From the NCBI GenBank assembly GCA_965223325.1, contig CBDCWI010000001.1:160001-224000 (forward strand): DNA of 64,000 nt, given 5' to 3'. Numbering within the stretch: the stretch's first letter is position 1; each line of letters opens with the position of its first letter. The DNA is from Candidatus Multivoradales bacterium (GTDB taxonomy: Bacteria; Acidobacteriota; Thermoanaerobaculia; Multivoradales; Multivoraceae). The notes under the pieces are model-generated. The model was not told the DNA's origin. It saw nothing but the letters and a program-made list of their open reading frames with translations, and did no database searches. Positions 8,455 to 18,189 of the stretch are shown here, one piece after another. A program made the position numbers and the translations under genes.

Positions 8455-10307
8455 TTAGAAGTGGGCCGGCTCGCCGCCCTGGCTCCAGCCCTGGCGGCCG
8501 AATCGCCGCTCCAGCTGACTGTCGTCGAGCTTGAGAATCGTTGGTCGGCCGTGGGGACATGCATACGGCTGCTCGGCTTCGAAGAGCTCTCCGACCAGTT
8601 GTTCCATCTTCTCGAGCGACAGCGGATGGTGAATCTTGATCGCGCCCTGGCACGCGCGGTCCGCCGCCAGACCGTCGAGTAGACGCGCTCGTACGTCGAC
8701 TGAGCCAGCGCCGTCGAGAGGACTTTCGCCGGCCACCGCGACCAGCAACCGTTCGGCCGCACGCGCGCTCCAACCTACCGGTAGGGCGCGAACCGCCCAG
8801 GCGTCCCCCGAGTAGCGCTCGAGCTCGAAACCGGCGCGCGCGAGACTTGGCTCGACTTCCCCGAGAGCCTCGGACTCGACCGGACCGAACTCGAGCACCA
8901 ACGGCTCGAGAAGCCGCTGGACTTCCGGTTCGTCGCCCTCGAGCGCTCTGCGAAGGCGCTCATAGAGGACCCGTTCATGAGCCGCGTGTTGATCGACCAG
9001 GTAGAGCCCATCAGGGCCTTCCACGAGAACAAGCGAACCTTTGTACTGCCCAAGGACCCTCAGGGGCCGCTCATCGCCGGGTCGCGCCGCGCCTGAGAAG
9101 CCACGCCCGGGACTGGTCCACGGTTGGTACGAGACGCCGCCGATGCGCTCCTGGCTGGGATGCGGATAGGTCGGGCTGTCCTCGGCAACGACACCGCCAC
9201 CGGGCTCGAGCATGCGCCCCAGACCCTGCCACGCGAAACTCGACGGACGAGTCTGTGGGTCGACTTCTTCGAGCACCGTCGGCTCCTCATCGCGCGCCTG
9301 GGCGAGAGCCTGCCGAAGAACCGAGGCCAGTTGGCCAAACACCGCCCGATCACGAAAGCGCACCTCGGCCTTTTGTGGATGAACGTTGACGTCCACCTCG
9401 TGCGGTGGCACATCGAGGAACAGAAACAGCGCCGGGAAGCGATCGCCATGCCAGAGGCTGCGAACGCAACCGTAGAACACCCCAAGGATCGAGCGATCGC
9501 GGAGCAGACGGCCGTTGACGTAGCTGAAGATGCGTCGTCCACCGAGCGTGCGCCGGGTCCCGAGGAGACCCCGCACGATCGCATCAGGAGGCAAAGGTAC
9601 GAGTTCATCCGCGAGCTCGGAGCCGAAGAGCTGCCTCACCCGCTCACGCAGCGCCTCGACGAACGGCGGCGCATCGGGACCCCCCGCCGTCGTCGCCGGC
9701 GCACTGAGGCGTTCGCGTCCGTCGTGGTGCACGGTCCAGTGAACCTCGGGATGGGCGAGCGCATAACCCTGGACGACCTCGATCGCCCGCCGATACTCGG
9801 TGACCGGTTTCTTGAGGAACGACTTGCGGGCCGGAACCGCATCGAACAGACCGTCGACTTCGATGCGCGTTCCCCGCCCGCGCGGCGCCGGGCTCTGCTT
9901 CTCGAGGCGTCCGGCGACGAAACGTACACGGCTGGCGTCAAACCCCTCGGCGGCGCTGGTTGCGTCGACCGTAGCCACGGCGGCGATCGCCGCCAAGGCC
10001 TCGCCGCGGAAGCCGAGCGTCTGCACTCGTTCGAGGTCCTCGAAACGACTGATCTTGCTGGTGGCGTGGCGTTCGAAGGCCGCTCTCAGTTCTTCGGGCG
10101 CCATGCCGTGCCCGTCATCGTCGACAACAATGCGACGACGGCCACCCTCTTCGAGTTCGATGACTACGCGTCCGGCACCGGAGTCGAGGGCATTCTCCAC
10201 CAGCTCCTTGACCACCGATGCCGGGCGCTCGACCACTTCGCCGGCAGCGATCTGACTGATCAGTCGATCGTCGAGACGCCTGATGCGGCGCTCCTTCTGG
10301 CTGGCGC

Positions 10308-10311
<4 letters not shown>
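8455..10311 (-). CDS. mutL: DNA mismatch repair endonuclease MutL
   Basis: IAAGEVVERPASVVKELVENALD, GFRGEAL, DVNVHPQK, DQHAAHER, CPHGRP. Confidence 0.97.
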
Positions 10312-13094
<2,783 letters not shown>

Positions 13095-13107
13095 GAAAGT
13101 GCCTTCG

Positions 13108-15132
13108 TCAAATGCTCGAGGAGCCCGCGTTCGAAGTCTGCGGCGCCGTTTCAGGGGTGGTCCCGGTGTCGTTCTTGCCGTCGTCCTGTTCGAGCTCCGC
13201 GAGCCGGATACTGCGTGAGTAAACGCGGTGGACGGCTTGCACGAGGCCGAGGCGGTTCTGGCGCTGCTCGTCATCATCCGTGCGCACGAGAACCTCGGTC
13301 ATGAACCGTTCGACAACCTCGCCGAGCTCGAGCATCCCGGCGAGCCAACGTTCATGCTCGGGACGAGCACCGGCTGCCGGCGCAGTCACCACCGAGCGAA
13401 TCACCGGGCGCACCCGCTCGAGCGTCTCCCACAGTGCACGCTCGGCCGGCTCCCGCAAGCGAGTAGGGTCGACCTCCCGCTCGGGGGCCTCCCGCAGAAT
13501 CGACACCATCCGTCGCGCGGTCCTCACGACCCGGGCCAATCCTTCGCGGCCGCGCAGGTGGGTCAACAGACCGAGGCGGGCCTCGACGTCGCCAATCAGG
13601 CTGCTACCACCGGCACCGAGCACCGCTTCGACCTCGCCTAGTTGGTAGCCGCGCTCGGCGAGGACCGTTCGCAGAATCCGCGTGCGCAAAGGGCGCAGAT
13701 CCATCAGTACGGCCTCGTCGCTCCTCCTTGCCCCTCGCTGTTGCAGACGAACCGCCCGCGCGGTCGCCAGGTCGAGATCGAGCGGCAGGCGAGTCCGAGA
13801 GAGCGTCTTGATCACTTTGTAGAGCGCCCGCCCGACCTCAGCGTCGTCGGCGCCCTCGAGTTCACGGGTGCTCATCGTGACGGCCCGGGAGGCCACCAGG
13901 TCCAGGGCATTGGCGATCTCGACCACCTGGCGCACGCCGAAGCGTTCAGCATCAACGGCGGCATCAGCGGCCGTCTCGTCGTCGGGCGATTCCGTGGCTC
14001 CTCCCAGGCAGCGCCCGCCGGCGATCGCCCGCCACACCGACTCGGGGTAGCCCTCGTCTCGGGCCATCAAAGCACCAACGACTCCCGCCAACCCGGGGTA
14101 CTCCAGAACGGTCTCGGTCGCCCGATCGGCCGGCGCCATCTGCGCCGCCTCGCGCGCGCGGTCGGCGCGCTCCTGCCATCCAAGATCGCCGCACAGGCTT
14201 TCGGCGAGCGTTGCCACCCGATCGATTCGTTCTCCCCAGGTACCACTACCCACACCGTAGCGACGTGTTCGTAGCTCACGCGCAAAACGCGCCAGAGGCT
14301 CCGAACGATCGCGCGCCCAGAGGACAGCCAGATCCTCGAGGCGTTCGGTGAGCCGCCAGGAGTGACCGAGGCCAATCGCCCCATCGGGATCGTCCGGCCG
14401 GTCGAGAACCACCAGCACGCGATCCAAGAGCTCACCGCCCGCGGACGCGCGCAGTGGAAAGACCTCCAGCCGCTCTTTCAAACAGTGTTCGACCAACACC
14501 TCTGGCAGCCCCCGAAAGACCGGCGGCAGATCGACGGTGATGACCCCTGGGCTTTCGAGACTCCAGACCAGTTCATCAATCAGTGACTCCACGCCGCTCA
14601 GTTCGGCGCCAGCTTCTTTCGCACGCTCCTCGAGAGCGGCAAAGAGCGTCGACCGACGCTCGGCTGGTTGAACCAGAACACCCCGTTCCTCGAGCGCCGA
14701 GAAGTAGTCCTCGGAGGTCGACGGTGAAAAGGGGTCAGGCGACAAGACGGGGTGCCCAATCGAAGTCGCGCCGGTCTCGACTCCCAGAACCCTCGCCTGG
14801 CAGGCCTTTCCATTGACCAGCAGCAACGCCCCGACGGGCTCGAGAACATCCCAATCACCGTGCCGTTTGTTGCCGGCCGACGAGAACGGGGCAAAGGTCG
14901 CGAGAACGGCATCGACGGCGGCCCCAACGACGCGCTCGCCGTCCCTGCCTTCGTCGCTGAGCCGTAGGGCAACCACCAAACGGCGGCAGGTCGCGCCGCT
15001 TCTCCCGCGGTCGCACTGGACACCGGCGGCAAGCAGTTCACGCACCACATGGCCACGCAGGGCCGGGCCGAGCTCCCGGGCACGAGCCCGAGGGAGGCCG
15101 TCGAAGCGAAGCTCGAGCAGAAAGTCGCTCAC
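13108..15132 (-). CDS. glyS: Highly divergent glycyl-tRNA synthetase beta-subunit-like protein
   Basis: DFLLELRFDGLP (cf. FLVEIGTEELP), RRLVV, GHPVL...AERR, RLEDLAVLWARD, D-R-ATETVLEYPGLAG, DEQRQNRLGL; located between glyQ-like and ppdK. Confidence 0.75.
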   Translation of the reverse strand: MSDFLLELRFDGLPRARARELGPALRGHVVRELLAAGVQCDRGRSGATCRRLVVALRLSDEGRDGERVVGAAVDAVLATFAPFSSAGNKRHGDWDVLEPVGALLLVNGKACQARVLGVETGATSIGHPVLSPDPFSPSTSEDYFSALEERGVLVQPAERRSTLFAALEERAKEAGAELSGVESLIDELVWSLESPGVITVDLPPVFRGLPEVLVEHCLKERLEVFPLRASAGGELLDRVLVVLDRPDDPDGAIGLGHSWRLTERLEDLAVLWARDRSEPLARFARELRTRRYGVGSGTWGERIDRVATLAESLCGDLGWQERADRAREAAQMAPADRATETVLEYPGLAGVVGALMARDEGYPESVWRAIAGGRCLGGATESPDDETAADAAVDAERFGVRQVVEIANALDLVASRAVTMSTRELEGADDAEVGRALYKVIKTLSRTRLPLDLDLATARAVRLQQRGARRSDEAVLMDLRPLRTRILRTVLAERGYQLGEVEAVLGAGGSSLIGDVEARLGLLTHLRGREGLARVVRTARRMVSILREAPEREVDPTRLREPAERALWETLERVRPVIRSVVTAPAAGARPEHERWLAGMLELGEVVERFMTEVLVRTDDDEQRQNRLGLVQAVHRVYSRSIRLAELEQDDGKNDTGTTPETAPQTSNAGSSSI

Positions 15133-16004
15133 CGGGAGCCCGCCTTTTCTCTGCGGCGACGCGCCTCGGCCACAATTCGCAGCAGCAGCTCGCGCACCGC
15201 GTCGGCCGGGGCCTCGGGAACCGGACTCGAGCCCAGACCTGGGGCTTCGAGCAGGCTGAGGTCTCGGTAGGCCTCGAGCAGGCGACGGTAGGCGAGATGG
15301 ACCGCTCCCGCGTCGAGCGCCAGTTCTGCGTCTTCGAGCGTCGCCCGCGCCAATTCCATGAAGCGTGCCTCGCCAACTACCGCGGCGTGGTAACCACGCA
15401 GGTCGGCATCGGCGTCCCCTCGAACCGCCTGCCAGGAAGTATCGGGTGCCCATTGCAACTCGGCCAGGGTTGCGGCCCCCTGACAGAGACGCGCCAGCGA
15501 TTCGAGCCGCAAAACGACTTCGGCGAGGACCGCACCCGAGCCGAGGCCGGCGAGCCGATCGACAATCGCCAGCCGGCCGAGGTTGAGGCCATTGACGCGC
15601 AGTCTGTGCCCGCGGGCACGAATGTCATGGCTGGGAAGCTCGAGAGCCAGGTCTTCGAGGCGAACGTCCATGCCCGATTGGCACAAGCCGGTCTTCTCGA
15701 GCACCTCGATCACCTCCACCAGGAGGCCGCGCTCGGGAACCGGGCGGAGGATGGCCTGGCAAACCAGCTCCGAGGCCGGTCGACCCCCGAGCAGGCGAGT
15801 ACGCCCAGGCAAGCGCGCGATCGTCTGCACCTGAACGCTTGCGGAATGGTCGCTGCCGAGCAGGAGGTCGGGCGACATCAGACTGTCGGGCAGTGCCAGC
15901 TCGGGCGACGGCAGCACAACGGCTCCCGCTCCGCGCCAGTGCTCGAGCAGAACCAGCAGCAGGTCTTCGGCAACCCGCGATGGAGCACTGGCATCGACCC
16001 TCAT
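15129..16004 (-). CDS. glyQ: Degenerate glycyl-tRNA synthetase alpha-subunit-like protein, catalytic motifs lost
   Basis: 291 aa; scaffold matches GlyQ (DLLLVLLEHW..G, QAILRPVP, DVR, NG, E...LESLA...QG...LQW, AY..LLEA) and recO-glyQ-glyS-ppdK synteny is kept. Confidence 0.7.
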   Translation of the reverse strand: MRVDASAPSRVAEDLLLVLLEHWRGAGAVVLPSPELALPDSLMSPDLLLGSDHSASVQVQTIARLPGRTRLLGGRPASELVCQAILRPVPERGLLVEVIEVLEKTGLCQSGMDVRLEDLALELPSHDIRARGHRLRVNGLNLGRLAIVDRLAGLGSGAVLAEVVLRLESLARLCQGAATLAELQWAPDTSWQAVRGDADADLRGYHAAVVGEARFMELARATLEDAELALDAGAVHLAYRRLLEAYRDLSLLEAPGLGSSPVPEAPADAVRELLLRIVAEARRRREKAGSR

Positions 16005-16762
16005 CGCCCCACCTCGGCCAGGGTCCGCTGCATCACGCGATAGCTGCGCAGCTCATGTTGCAGGAAGTAGCGCCTCACGGAAGCCGAAAGAGACTCGAGA
16101 GCCCGCAGAGTGCACGCATCAGGTGGTGTCGTCGAAATCTCGGAGAGCGACTGGCGAGACACCTGCAAGAGTGCGTGCAACACGCTCACGTCGATGCGCT
16201 CGCCCCCTTGACCGCGGGCACAGTCTGGACACACCAGACTGTCACCTCCCTCTGGTAGGACCGCACCGCGACCATCGAAATCTCCAAGACAGACCGGACA
16301 CTGACGAGGCGGGGGGAAGATCCCCCCCAGCCTGAGAACCCAGACCTCGACATAGCGCGCCACGAGACCAGGGTCGATCCCCGCTTCGAGCGCAACCACC
16401 GCACTCTCGAGGAGTCGCAACATATGGGGTGCCGGTTGGTTCTCCTGCGCGAAGGCTGCGATGTGCTCGGCCAGGTAGGTGCCCACCAGGATGCGTTCGA
16501 GATCGTGATGAAGGGCCGCCGGGGCGCGCTCCATCGCCACGTCTTCGATGCGCACTAGATCTCGACCGGGTTTCTCGAACCACGTCAAGCCAACTCGAGC
16601 GAGCGGTTGCAGCTGGCCGGCATAGCGGCTGTACTTGCGCCGCGCGCCTCGCGCGACCCCGCGCTTCAAACCGTGTTCGGCGGTGAGAAAGGCAACGATG
16701 CGGTCACCGTCATGCAGGTCTTGAACGTCGAGCAGGAGAGCCGTGGCATGCAGCCGCTTCAC
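16001..16762 (-). CDS. recO: DNA repair protein RecO
   Basis: DRIVAFLTAEHG..RGVARGAR, LQPL, zinc finger CPVC...CPDC; GTG start overlaps the mgtE stop. Confidence 0.92.
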   Translation of the reverse strand: MKRLHATALLLDVQDLHDGDRIVAFLTAEHGLKRGVARGARRKYSRYAGQLQPLARVGLTWFEKPGRDLVRIEDVAMERAPAALHHDLERILVGTYLAEHIAAFAQENQPAPHMLRLLESAVVALEAGIDPGLVARYVEVWVLRLGGIFPPPRQCPVCLGDFDGRGAVLPEGGDSLVCPDCARGQGGERIDVSVLHALLQVSRQSLSEISTTPPDACTLRALESLSASVRRYFLQHELRSYRVMQRTLAEVGR

Positions 16763-18189
16763 AGCACCATCCATTGAATCAAGAACGCCGCGGTCATGAA
16801 GTAGACCAGGAGCCCGATGATGTCGCACGAGGTGGTGACCATGGGCCCTGAAGCAACCGCCGGGTCGATTCCCAGGCGCTCGAAGAGGAGCGGCACCATT
16901 GCGCCATTGAGCGACGCCAGAAAGACCGCCGAGAAGAGCGCCACCGCCACGACGACTCCGTAGGTAACGTGCGCTCGTTCTGGAACCAGAACCGGCATGA
17001 GGACGACCGCCAGGGTGCCGGCGAGAAGCGCGAAGATGCTCCCCAGCATGGCTCCAACCTGGGCCTGTTGCATCAGGAACTGGCGCGCTCGTCCCTGCGG
17101 GCCGACCAAGCGACCGGTGGCGAGACCGCGGACTGCAATCGTCGACGTCTGACTTCCCGCGTTGCCTCCCATGCCCATGATGATGGGTACAAACATCAAC
17201 AGGAAGAAAGCCTCGCGGGTCGAGATGCCGAGGTGGTCGACCAGGAGGCCTTCGGAGCGCTCGATCAACAAGCCGCCCAGAAACAAGCCGACGAAGTTGA
17301 CCAGCAACCAGGGCAGACGAATGCGCGCAACCCGCAGCGAGCGACCCTCATAGATGAGCTCGTCGTTCGACGACCCGACCATCTTGAAGAGGTCCTCTTC
17401 CATCTCGTAGTTGACGACCGTAATCACGTCATCGATCGTGATGACGCCCATCAGGTGGTTCTCGATGTCGGTGACCGGAACCGCCAGCAGGTCGTAGCGC
17501 GAGGCCAGGCGGGCAACCTCCTCCTGGTCGGTGTCGGTGGTGACCTTGATCACCGAGCGGTTCATCAGCTCCTCGAGCTTCCTGCCCTGCTTGGCCAGGA
17601 GGAGCTCGCGCAACGAGATCACGCCGGTGAGCTGACCGCCTTCACCGACGACGTAGAGATAGAAGATCATCTCGAACTCTTCGCCGATGCTCTGAATGGT
17701 CTCGATCGCCTGCTGCACGGTCGCATCTTCGTGCAGGCTGAAGACCTCGGTCGACATCAGGCGTCCCGCCGTGTCCTCGGCATAGGTCAGCTGCTCGACC
17801 AGCTCCGGGTTCTCACGCACCTGCTGAATGGAGAGCACCTGCTCGGCGAGCTCGCCGGGCAGCGACTCGACGACCGCCACCCGGTCGTCGACCGGCATCG
17901 AGTCGAGGATCTTGCCAATCTTCTTCGGCTCGAGGCGTTCGAGAATCTCGACCCGGAGGCCCTGCGACATCTCGACGAACACCTCGCCGATCGCCTCAGG
18001 GTAGTCGCCAAGCCCGGTGTCGACGACGAAGTCCTGCTCGTGAGGCGTGAGGCCTTCGAGCAGCACGGCGACGTCCTCCGGGCGCACTTTGCCCAGGATT
18101 CGCGACAGATTGCGGCGGGCTGAGCGACGGATCAGGCGCCGAATCGTCGGCTGGAGACGCGCCGCATGCTGGTTGCTCTCAGGCGGCAT
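16759..18189 (-). CDS. mgtE: Magnesium transporter MgtE
   Basis: TAGRLM CBS pair, RIRLPWL, GMGGNAGSQ, IDPAVASGPMVTTSCD. Confidence 0.95.
   Translation of the reverse strand: MPPESNQHAARLQPTIRRLIRRSARRNLSRILGKVRPEDVAVLLEGLTPHEQDFVVDTGLGDYPEAIGEVFVEMSQGLRVEILERLEPKKIGKILDSMPVDDRVAVVESLPGELAEQVLSIQQVRENPELVEQLTYAEDTAGRLMSTEVFSLHEDATVQQAIETIQSIGEEFEMIFYLYVVGEGGQLTGVISLRELLLAKQGRKLEELMNRSVIKVTTDTDQEEVARLASRYDLLAVPVTDIENHLMGVITIDDVITVVNYEMEEDLFKMVGSSNDELIYEGRSLRVARIRLPWLLVNFVGLFLGGLLIERSEGLLVDHLGISTREAFFLLMFVPIIMGMGGNAGSQTSTIAVRGLATGRLVGPQGRARQFLMQQAQVGAMLGSIFALLAGTLAVVLMPVLVPERAHVTYGVVVAVALFSAVFLASLNGAMVPLLFERLGIDPAVASGPMVTTSCDIIGLLVYFMTAAFLIQWMVL

Follow-up and report, generated by a model that had tools for sequence, protein, structure and literature searches.

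What keeps a gene at the position of glyQ when the active site of its product has eroded? The question is raised by a locus in a stretch of 64,000 nucleotides (hereafter the window, meaning the whole stretch) from the genome of a Candidatus Multivoradales bacterium of the Acidobacteriota (contig CBDCWI010000001.1, positions 160,001 to 224,000). There, an open reading frame (ORF) follows recO where glyQ is expected, the gene for the alpha subunit of the bacterial (alpha-beta)2 type of glycyl-tRNA synthetase (GlyRS), and is itself followed by an ORF resembling glyS, the gene for the beta subunit. We call the two products GlyQ-like and GlyS-like. We show that the GlyQ-like ORF is the vertically inherited glyQ of this Acidobacteriota lineage, lying in the ancestral mgtE-recO-glyQ-glyS-ppdK block, whose order is kept among relatives with canonical or degenerate glyQ copies alike. 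It is a direct positional ortholog of canonical GlyQ, with the same fold, length, place between recO and glyS and overlapping stop and start codons. Yet, it scores 42 bits where canonical GlyQ scores about 445, it has other residues in the glycine pocket, at the Mg ligands and in place of the motif-3 arginine and, unlike canonical GlyQ, it is not the GlyRS of its genome.

The protein remains a recognizable member of the GlyQ family. It scores 42.2 bits on PF02091 (E-value 7.6e-11; residues 14-259 on profile positions 3-251 of 278), above the gathering score of 27 bits, whereas GlyQ proteins of sister families reach 438-451 bits. On the NCBIfam glyQ equivalogs NF006827 and TIGR00388 it obtains 44.2 and 40.5 bits against cut-offs of 369 and 361.45, falling short roughly eight-fold of the level that denotes the same function. 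As a reference set for aligning the positional orthologs we used 12 canonical GlyQ; nine sister families within the order are represented among them. Among the 172 columns invariant in these 12 proteins, the window protein retains 49, the lowest number of all, and the other eroded copies retain 50-83. At the level of sequence, the divergence of the window GlyQ is thus not a matter of chance. In the alignment, canonical EVGAGTM lies opposite ALPDSLM, QPSRRPADGRYG opposite QTIARLPGRTRLLG and EITYGLER opposite EVVLRLES, and the changes also take in EDNWE and a stretch where the window protein reads GHRLRVNGLNLGRLAIVDRLAG. A previous reading of the locus, made from the sequence only, had listed motif changes relative to canonical GlyQ, and each of them can be found again when the protein is aligned either with canonical GlyQ from sister families or with GlyQ chains of solved structure.

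The fold has outlasted the motifs. We modelled the protein with AlphaFold2 (AF2) from an alignment of 11 eroded homologs only, because canonical sequences could otherwise pull the model. The model (predicted local distance difference test, pLDDT, 79.4; predicted template-modelling score, pTM, 0.79) has the class II catalytic fold and the C-terminal helical domain. When it was compared with the PDB by Foldseek, the top 14 structures listed were GlyQ alpha chains or fused GlyRS (template-modelling score, TM, 0.84-0.87; 17-21% identity). The sequence-only reading had claimed that overall length and hydrophobic scaffold residues are retained, and had proposed profile and structure searches as checks of homology; the searches upheld the homology, and length and fold are indeed kept. 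Close relatives are scarce. A word-indexed search of 5.8 billion proteins retrieved the window protein alone. A HMMER scan of 1.84 billion representatives gave 28 proteins at E-values up to 0.001, the best at 33-34% identity and none above 34%. These top relatives are eroded GlyQ as well, since all 10 that we checked score 120-286 bits on PF02091.

To what extent is the active site changed? Residues were mapped through a phmmer alignment to chain 7eiv_A and through our own alignments, using the numbering of the E. coli enzyme (PMC8464048). According to the available part of that study, the glycine pocket of E. coli GlyQ consists of T39, Q82, Q84, W121 and E162, conserved in all (alpha-beta)2 GlyRS, R64 belongs to motif 2, R76 and R169 contact the gamma-phosphate, and D67, E134 and E141 are Mg ligands (PMC8464048). 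In the window protein the pocket reads L, V, Q, L, E, i.e. two of the five residues are kept and three are lost (T39L, Q82V, W121L). R64 is kept, and so are R69, Q84 and E162; R169 at motif 3 is replaced by serine, and R76 corresponds to R or to a gap depending on the alignment. The ATP/Mg site is not preserved, with P or R in place of D67 and N in place of E141. E134 is replaced by R, but this position is already Q in the canonical GlyQ of the same order. Single alanine changes at the mapped positions of the E. coli enzyme cost 11- to 985-fold in activation, and single changes at the positions of the Mg ligands and the motif-3 arginine cost 11- to 123-fold, in the portion of the study available (PMC8464048). 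For this reason, there are strong grounds to believe, from the residues present, that the GlyQ-like/GlyS-like pair no longer aminoacylates. The earlier description of the protein as catalytically dead hence finds strong support in the replacement of three of five pocket residues, D67, E141 and R169.

Glycylation should then depend on another enzyme, as the sequence-only reading had predicted, and such an enzyme is indeed present. The source genome (G000; 6.69 Mb in 2 contigs, 98.2% complete) has a single alpha2-type GlyRS, encoded on contig 2 (about 3002797-3004314, minus strand; 505 aa), with a score of 453.7 bits where 243.3 is the cut-off. No second GlyQ was found in this genome, the window ORF being its sole match to PF02091. 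The three tRNA-Gly genes of the genome are all ordinary bacterial ones, with G1:C72 and U73, which speaks against a separate class of tRNA-Gly serving the old enzyme. It follows with good confidence that the three U73 tRNA-Gly are charged by the alpha2 enzyme. In the same genome, ARAGORN identifies 51 tRNA genes, including one for tRNA-SeC, and the use of selenocysteine is therefore probable.

We surveyed 300 genomes of the order, i.e. 57 of the window's own family (f1, including G000), 24 of a neighbouring family (f7) and 219 of ten other families. The alpha2 GlyRS is present in 54 of the 56 f1 genomes other than G000 and in all 24 f7 genomes, and in 3 of the 219 others. GlyQ matches occur in 10 of the 57 f1 genomes, the same 10 that have a GlyS match, and are all eroded (42-157 bits). 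In f7, 23 of 24 genomes have a GlyQ, which is always eroded (165-283 bits). The degenerate copies of f1 (9 of 56) and f7 have E-values of 1e-23 to 1e-83, and the complete GlyQ of the other families are canonical (about 1e-128 to 1e-136), with lower values for some split or contig-cut copies. Hence, eroded GlyQ tracks the alpha2 GlyRS, and among these 300 genomes degenerate copies are confined to the two families bearing it. The three alpha2 matches in the other families lie in genomes that have a canonical GlyQ (G169 of f5, G242 and G277 of f8). Contamination of these genomes is 1%, 6% and 8%, respectively, G169 is 70% complete, and the joint occurrence of the two enzymes is explained either by contaminated bins or by coexistence in its very first stage. 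Two drafts, G035 (f12, 97% complete) and G036 (f2, 94%), have no GlyQ, GlyS or alpha2 GlyRS above cut-off, probably because of assembly gaps.

The alpha2 enzyme of the source genome is of foreign origin. We built a tree of alpha2 GlyRS from ORFs picked by homology. Its nearest named relatives are in metagenome-assembled genomes (MAGs) of Thermoanaerobaculia and Holophagales. The f1 enzymes are 70-76% identical among themselves and 57-68% identical to those of MAGs labelled Myxococcales, Planctomycetota and others. Between f1 and f7 identity is only 42-44%, and the two groups are not joined in the tree. Displacement followed by erosion thus occurred twice. As a proxy for the species tree we used RecO, whose tree leaves 11 of 21 inner branches open.

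The beta subunit has changed as well, an alteration that the sequence-only reading overlooked. GlyS-like matches PF02092 and DALR_1, and its 211.9 bits on TIGR00211 fall below the cut-off of 300. Aligned with the E. coli GlyS chain (E-value 1.6e-32), its residues 57-92 stand for chain residues 59-153. This is an in-frame loss of about 55-65 residues, corresponding to B2, the domain that binds the tRNA elbow (E. coli residues 66-124; canonical positions 88-147). The deletion is common to seven f1 genera (G000, G001, G003, G004, G005, G008 and G012) and absent from genus g10 and from f7; it looks like a single old event that was then maintained. In E. coli GlyRS, removal of B2 lowered charging more than truncation of the anticodon-binding domain and abolished the peak of the enzyme-tRNA complex, according to the part of the study at hand (PMC8464048). 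Since such a loss should cripple charging and is common to seven genera, the genes must have stayed intact long after charging was lost. A hand-read alignment, less certain than the scripted mapping of GlyQ, suggests that GlyS-like keeps R326 and D329, carries R159E, K394P, D456N and K457A, and has an insertion at Y434 (E. coli numbering, from the same available text). Around residues 371-393, the HD domain holds some 12 additional residues specific to the lineage, inserted at the canonical DQY.P; this insertion is predicted to be disordered (pLDDT below 50 for residues 377-393).

In spite of these changes, GlyS-like is the better conserved of the two proteins. Within its group, 43 columns are invariant and 46 nearly so, against 6 and 3 in GlyQ-like, and eleven arginines are among the invariant positions of GlyS-like. 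Pairwise identity within f1 is 36-43% for GlyS-like depending on the domain (20% in the short B2 remnant), against 26% for GlyQ-like. The canonical pattern is the reverse: between G026 and G034, GlyQ is 80-86% identical and GlyS 61%. The AF2 model of GlyS-like has a pLDDT of 83.8 and a pTM of 0.73.

Is the GlyQ-like ORF a pseudogene? None of the GlyQ matches of relatives in f1 and f7 has internal stops or a split frame, and the eroded copies persist without stop or frameshift through at least 8 genera in f1 and 9 in f7. The sole congeneric pair of f1 (G010 and G015, genus g10; 50% amino acid identity) gives a ratio of non-synonymous to synonymous substitution rates (dN/dS, by the NG86 method) of 0.45 (bootstrap 0.33-0.60), an approximate figure since dS is near saturation in this pair, as it is in all informative pairs. 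The distances at the three codon positions are 0.35, 0.32 and 0.52. We simulated neutral evolution at the composition and divergence of this pair, rejecting stops, in 150 runs. The simulated dN/dS had a median of 1.11 (2.5-97.5% range 0.89-1.43, minimum 0.81), and a mean of 10.9 stop-creating hits had to be rejected, none of the 150 runs being free of them. In the same two genomes the neighbouring genes have dN/dS of 0.12-0.22, two to four times lower than GlyQ-like, and GlyS-like has 0.37. Being below the neutral value and above that of the neighbours, the figure of 0.45 indicates constraint that is real but relaxed. In f7, same-genus dN/dS is 0.08-0.25 in 8 of the 10 most similar pairs (0.37 and 0.56 in the other two) and reaches 0.52 in more distant pairs, among the 25 pairs listed.

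The window copy has the codon usage of a normal gene. G+C is 0.81, 0.49 and 0.75 at the three codon positions of its frame, and with a codon-usage log-likelihood of 0.309 per codon it ranks at the 33.5th percentile among 2337 long ORFs from the source genome; recO scores lower, at the 8.6th percentile. Four public sequencing runs contained only the source-like contig and identical 151-letter pieces, with no variants, which weighs neither for nor against expression. With intact frames, dN/dS below 1 in relatives and normal codon usage, GlyQ-like is not an ordinary pseudogene. The earlier reading had named frameshifts and a dN/dS near 1 among relatives as marks of ordinary decay; no relative has a frameshift, and the ratios of the g10 pair and of the f7 pairs listed are below 1. 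We consider it moderately well supported that the ORF is still translated, as a gene under weak purifying selection.

How might such a gene be maintained? The alpha2 GlyRS would have taken over glycylation, the active site of the original GlyQ would have eroded and its GlyS partner would have lost B2. Coupled translation of recO, GlyQ-like and GlyS-like could still yield a folded protein of the GlyQ type. Most likely this protein would have no catalytic part and would give structural support to GlyS-like, the better conserved of the two, within what remains of an (alpha-beta)2-like complex. This predicted complex would keep the ancestral GlyS motifs and the eleven invariant arginines, and would probably bind RNA or tRNA. 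We lean, with little to spare, towards the survival of the alpha-like protein as structural partner of GlyS-like in a non-catalytic, possibly RNA-binding complex, a partner suggested by translational coupling and co-occurrence. The sequence-only reading had likewise proposed retention for a role other than aminoacylation. This proposal has indirect support only, from intact frames, normal codons, a confidently predicted fold and dN/dS below 1 in relatives. Against it stand the genomes that lack the pair and the saturation of the window copy in pairwise comparisons.

Several observations speak against a role for the pair. The glyQ-glyS pair is absent from 47 of the 57 f1 genomes, including all 42 of one genus, and any role must thus be dispensable. 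In G011 and G007, recO is directly followed by mutL, rnc and the synthetase gene, a clean loss of glyQ, glyS and ppdK. The joint loss of adjacent glyQ and glyS is expected from single deletions and so is no proof of a complex. Different lineages have lost different catalytic residues, and the 11 GlyQ-like proteins share only six invariant columns (L31, P66, G139, E168, L170 and A238), which resembles relaxed constraint more than the rise of a newly conserved site. With 42 bits, the window copy is the most eroded GlyQ among all those seen. Its pairwise comparisons are all saturated (dN about 0.8-1.1), the dN/dS of its own branch is uninformative, and its nearest relatives are at 34% identity or less. 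Finally, long open frames are commoner than usual at high G+C, and one of 248 aa runs antisense over the GlyQ-like gene itself.

Much of this would be expected if the pair were a functionless relic in slow decay, with deletion as its eventual fate. Open frames and dN/dS below 1 might then result from expression within the operon, through selection against toxic misfolding and polar effects, together with the few stops that arise at high G+C. The loss of the block from most f1 genomes, the erratic loss of catalytic residues, the extreme erosion and saturation of the window copy, a dN/dS that exceeds that of the neighbours, and the abundance of long spurious ORFs in the DNA of the window all agree with slow decay. 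Yet, decay must then have spared the frames over all the genera in which they are intact, when about 11 stop-creating hits are expected for the divergence of the g10 pair alone, and have left the genes whole in seven genera sharing a deletion that should cripple charging (a point drawn from the available text of the E. coli study). It is also at odds with dN/dS down to 0.08 in f7, with the ordinary codon usage of the window copy and with the 43 invariant columns of GlyS-like. A relic is the main rival account of the locus, a real possibility if the less likely one. A more far-reaching reading can also be framed. Ju et al. 2021 speculated on a 'cryptic function' of GlyQS from its HD domain (PMC8464048, in the part available). 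If bacterial GlyQS had a second, aminoacylation-independent job, f1 and f7 would be natural separation-of-function mutants that kept this job only, after an alpha2 GlyRS had assumed charging twice independently, which would explain why the beta-like protein is better conserved than the alpha-like one and why B2 was lost in frame with the pair intact across many genera. We regard this generalization as unlikely.

One might also imagine that the pair turned into a new enzyme, in which the GlyQ fold, helped by GlyS-like, activates or binds a different small molecule, for instance another amino acid or a nucleotide. The f7 copies invite this idea, since all 23 have R64, D67, R69 and R76 unchanged, with variation at T39, Q84, W121 and E141, a pattern that would suit an ATP site retained in this family beside an altered specificity pocket. 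The four residues R64, R69, Q84 and E162 retained in the window copy go in the same direction. But this copy has replaced D67, E141 and R169, at positions where the available E. coli data give 11- to 123-fold costs (PMC8464048), and with so few invariant columns f1 shows no new conserved polar cluster. For the locus studied here a new enzyme is decidedly improbable; a new enzymatic specificity is more plausible for f7 than for the window copy. The GlyQ-like proteins of f7 (loci L139-L161) may still bind ATP and have possibly been re-purposed, beside an alpha2 GlyRS. Finally, the pair could be a working, divergent alpha2beta2 GlyRS sharing the load with the alpha2 enzyme. This would account for the retained fold, coupling and place in the operon and for the kept ATP-site residues, and it fits three tRNA-Gly with bacterial U73. 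It is nonetheless hardly credible for a protein that lost three of five pocket residues, its Mg ligands and R169, that misses the equivalog cut-offs some eight-fold and whose partner lacks B2, carries R159E and, in the hand-read alignment set against the accessible E. coli description, lost most residues of the HD cavity.

The features of the locus are collected below. The uninterrupted frame of GlyQ-like and its coupling by overlap to recO and glyS, both pointed out in the sequence-only reading, are confirmed by the two junctions. The wider gene order is era, mgtE, recO, GlyQ-like, GlyS-like, ppdK, mutL, rnc and a class II aminoacyl-tRNA synthetase gene. The listed start of ppdK lies about 60 codons too far upstream, giving an overlap of 170 bases with the 3' end of the GlyS-like ORF; judging from the translation, the true start is probably an ATG near 13094. 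Where glyQ and glyS are missing in G011 (L124) and G007 (L125), set against 8455-16828 of the window, ppdK is also gone from this position. Between 12000 and 20000, hardly a real gene is free of overlap with long ORFs (100-400 aa) in antisense or shifted frames, an effect of the G+C content. The antisense ORF of 248 aa (15297-16043, plus strand) was rejected as a real gene by its codon score (0.222, against 0.309 for GlyQ-like) and by the Pfam match being on the minus strand.

Features of the glyQ-glyS locus, in window coordinates.
Feature	Position	Strand	Description
GlyQ-like ORF	15129..16004	minus	291 aa, ATG start (ORF listing); positional ortholog of glyQ with eroded active site
GlyS-like ORF	13108..15132	minus	674 aa, GTG start; homolog of the beta subunit without the B2 (tRNA-elbow) domain
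ATGA overlap	16001..16004	minus	recO stop and GlyQ-like start, read from the sequence; translational coupling
GTGA overlap	15129..15132	minus	GlyQ-like stop and GlyS-like start, read from the sequence; translational coupling
recO	16001..16828	minus	Pfam RecO_N and RecO_C; TIGR00613, 77.6 bits; upstream of the GlyQ-like ORF
ppdK ORF as listed	10308..13277	minus	PPDK_N, PEP-utilizers, PEP-utilizers_C

Synthetase-like proteins that do not charge tRNA are known. HisZ is a catalytically inactive paralog of histidyl-tRNA synthetase (HisRS) that regulates ATP phosphoribosyltransferase. Like GlyQ-like, it has the fold of a class II synthetase without aminoacylation, and GlyQ-like, if it acts at all, would similarly do so through protein contacts. 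The differences are nevertheless large. HisZ is an old and well-conserved paralog found beside a real HisRS, with a defined partner and role, whereas GlyQ-like is the original ortholog, displaced by an unrelated analogue, fast-evolving and often lost. Closer to it are the GlyQ of f7 and the metagenomic proteins P0002-P0012, which are eroded as well, those of f7 in a family with an alpha2 GlyRS in 24 of 24 genomes. Unlike the window copy, the GlyQS of f7 has kept its motif-2 residues and B2, is under strong constraint, has undergone milder erosion and accompanies a different alpha2 lineage.

Coexistence of the two types of GlyRS is reported to be extremely rare. In the accessible part of a preprint, both types occur in one of 542 proteomes, that of Haloactinopolyspora alba (bioRxiv 10.1101/2023.05.29.542759). 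This bacterium resembles the source genome in having a bacterial-type and an archaeal-type GlyRS together. However, the account, as far as it is accessible, includes no erosion of a copy, whereas here coexistence is family-wide and the resident enzyme always eroded. Two further candidates (PMC4005665 and PMC8318970) are, in the portions available, not parallels. In the open-access literature searched, no account came up of eroded glyQS genes retained beside an alpha2 GlyRS.

These results show that when an essential synthetase is displaced by a non-orthologous one, its genes need not simply be deleted but can persist for a very long time, intact, fast-evolving and catalytically eroded, and that this happened twice independently. 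They provide a dated and replicated series, from the mild erosion of f7 to the extreme erosion of the window copy. They also have a practical side, since annotation pipelines that name such ORFs 'glycine--tRNA ligase subunit alpha' on the strength of a Pfam match would misassign their function. If the residual role is real, these genes would be the cleanest material for studying a non-canonical function of GlyQS. If there is no role, they would calibrate how long expressed redundant genes survive in bacteria of high G+C.

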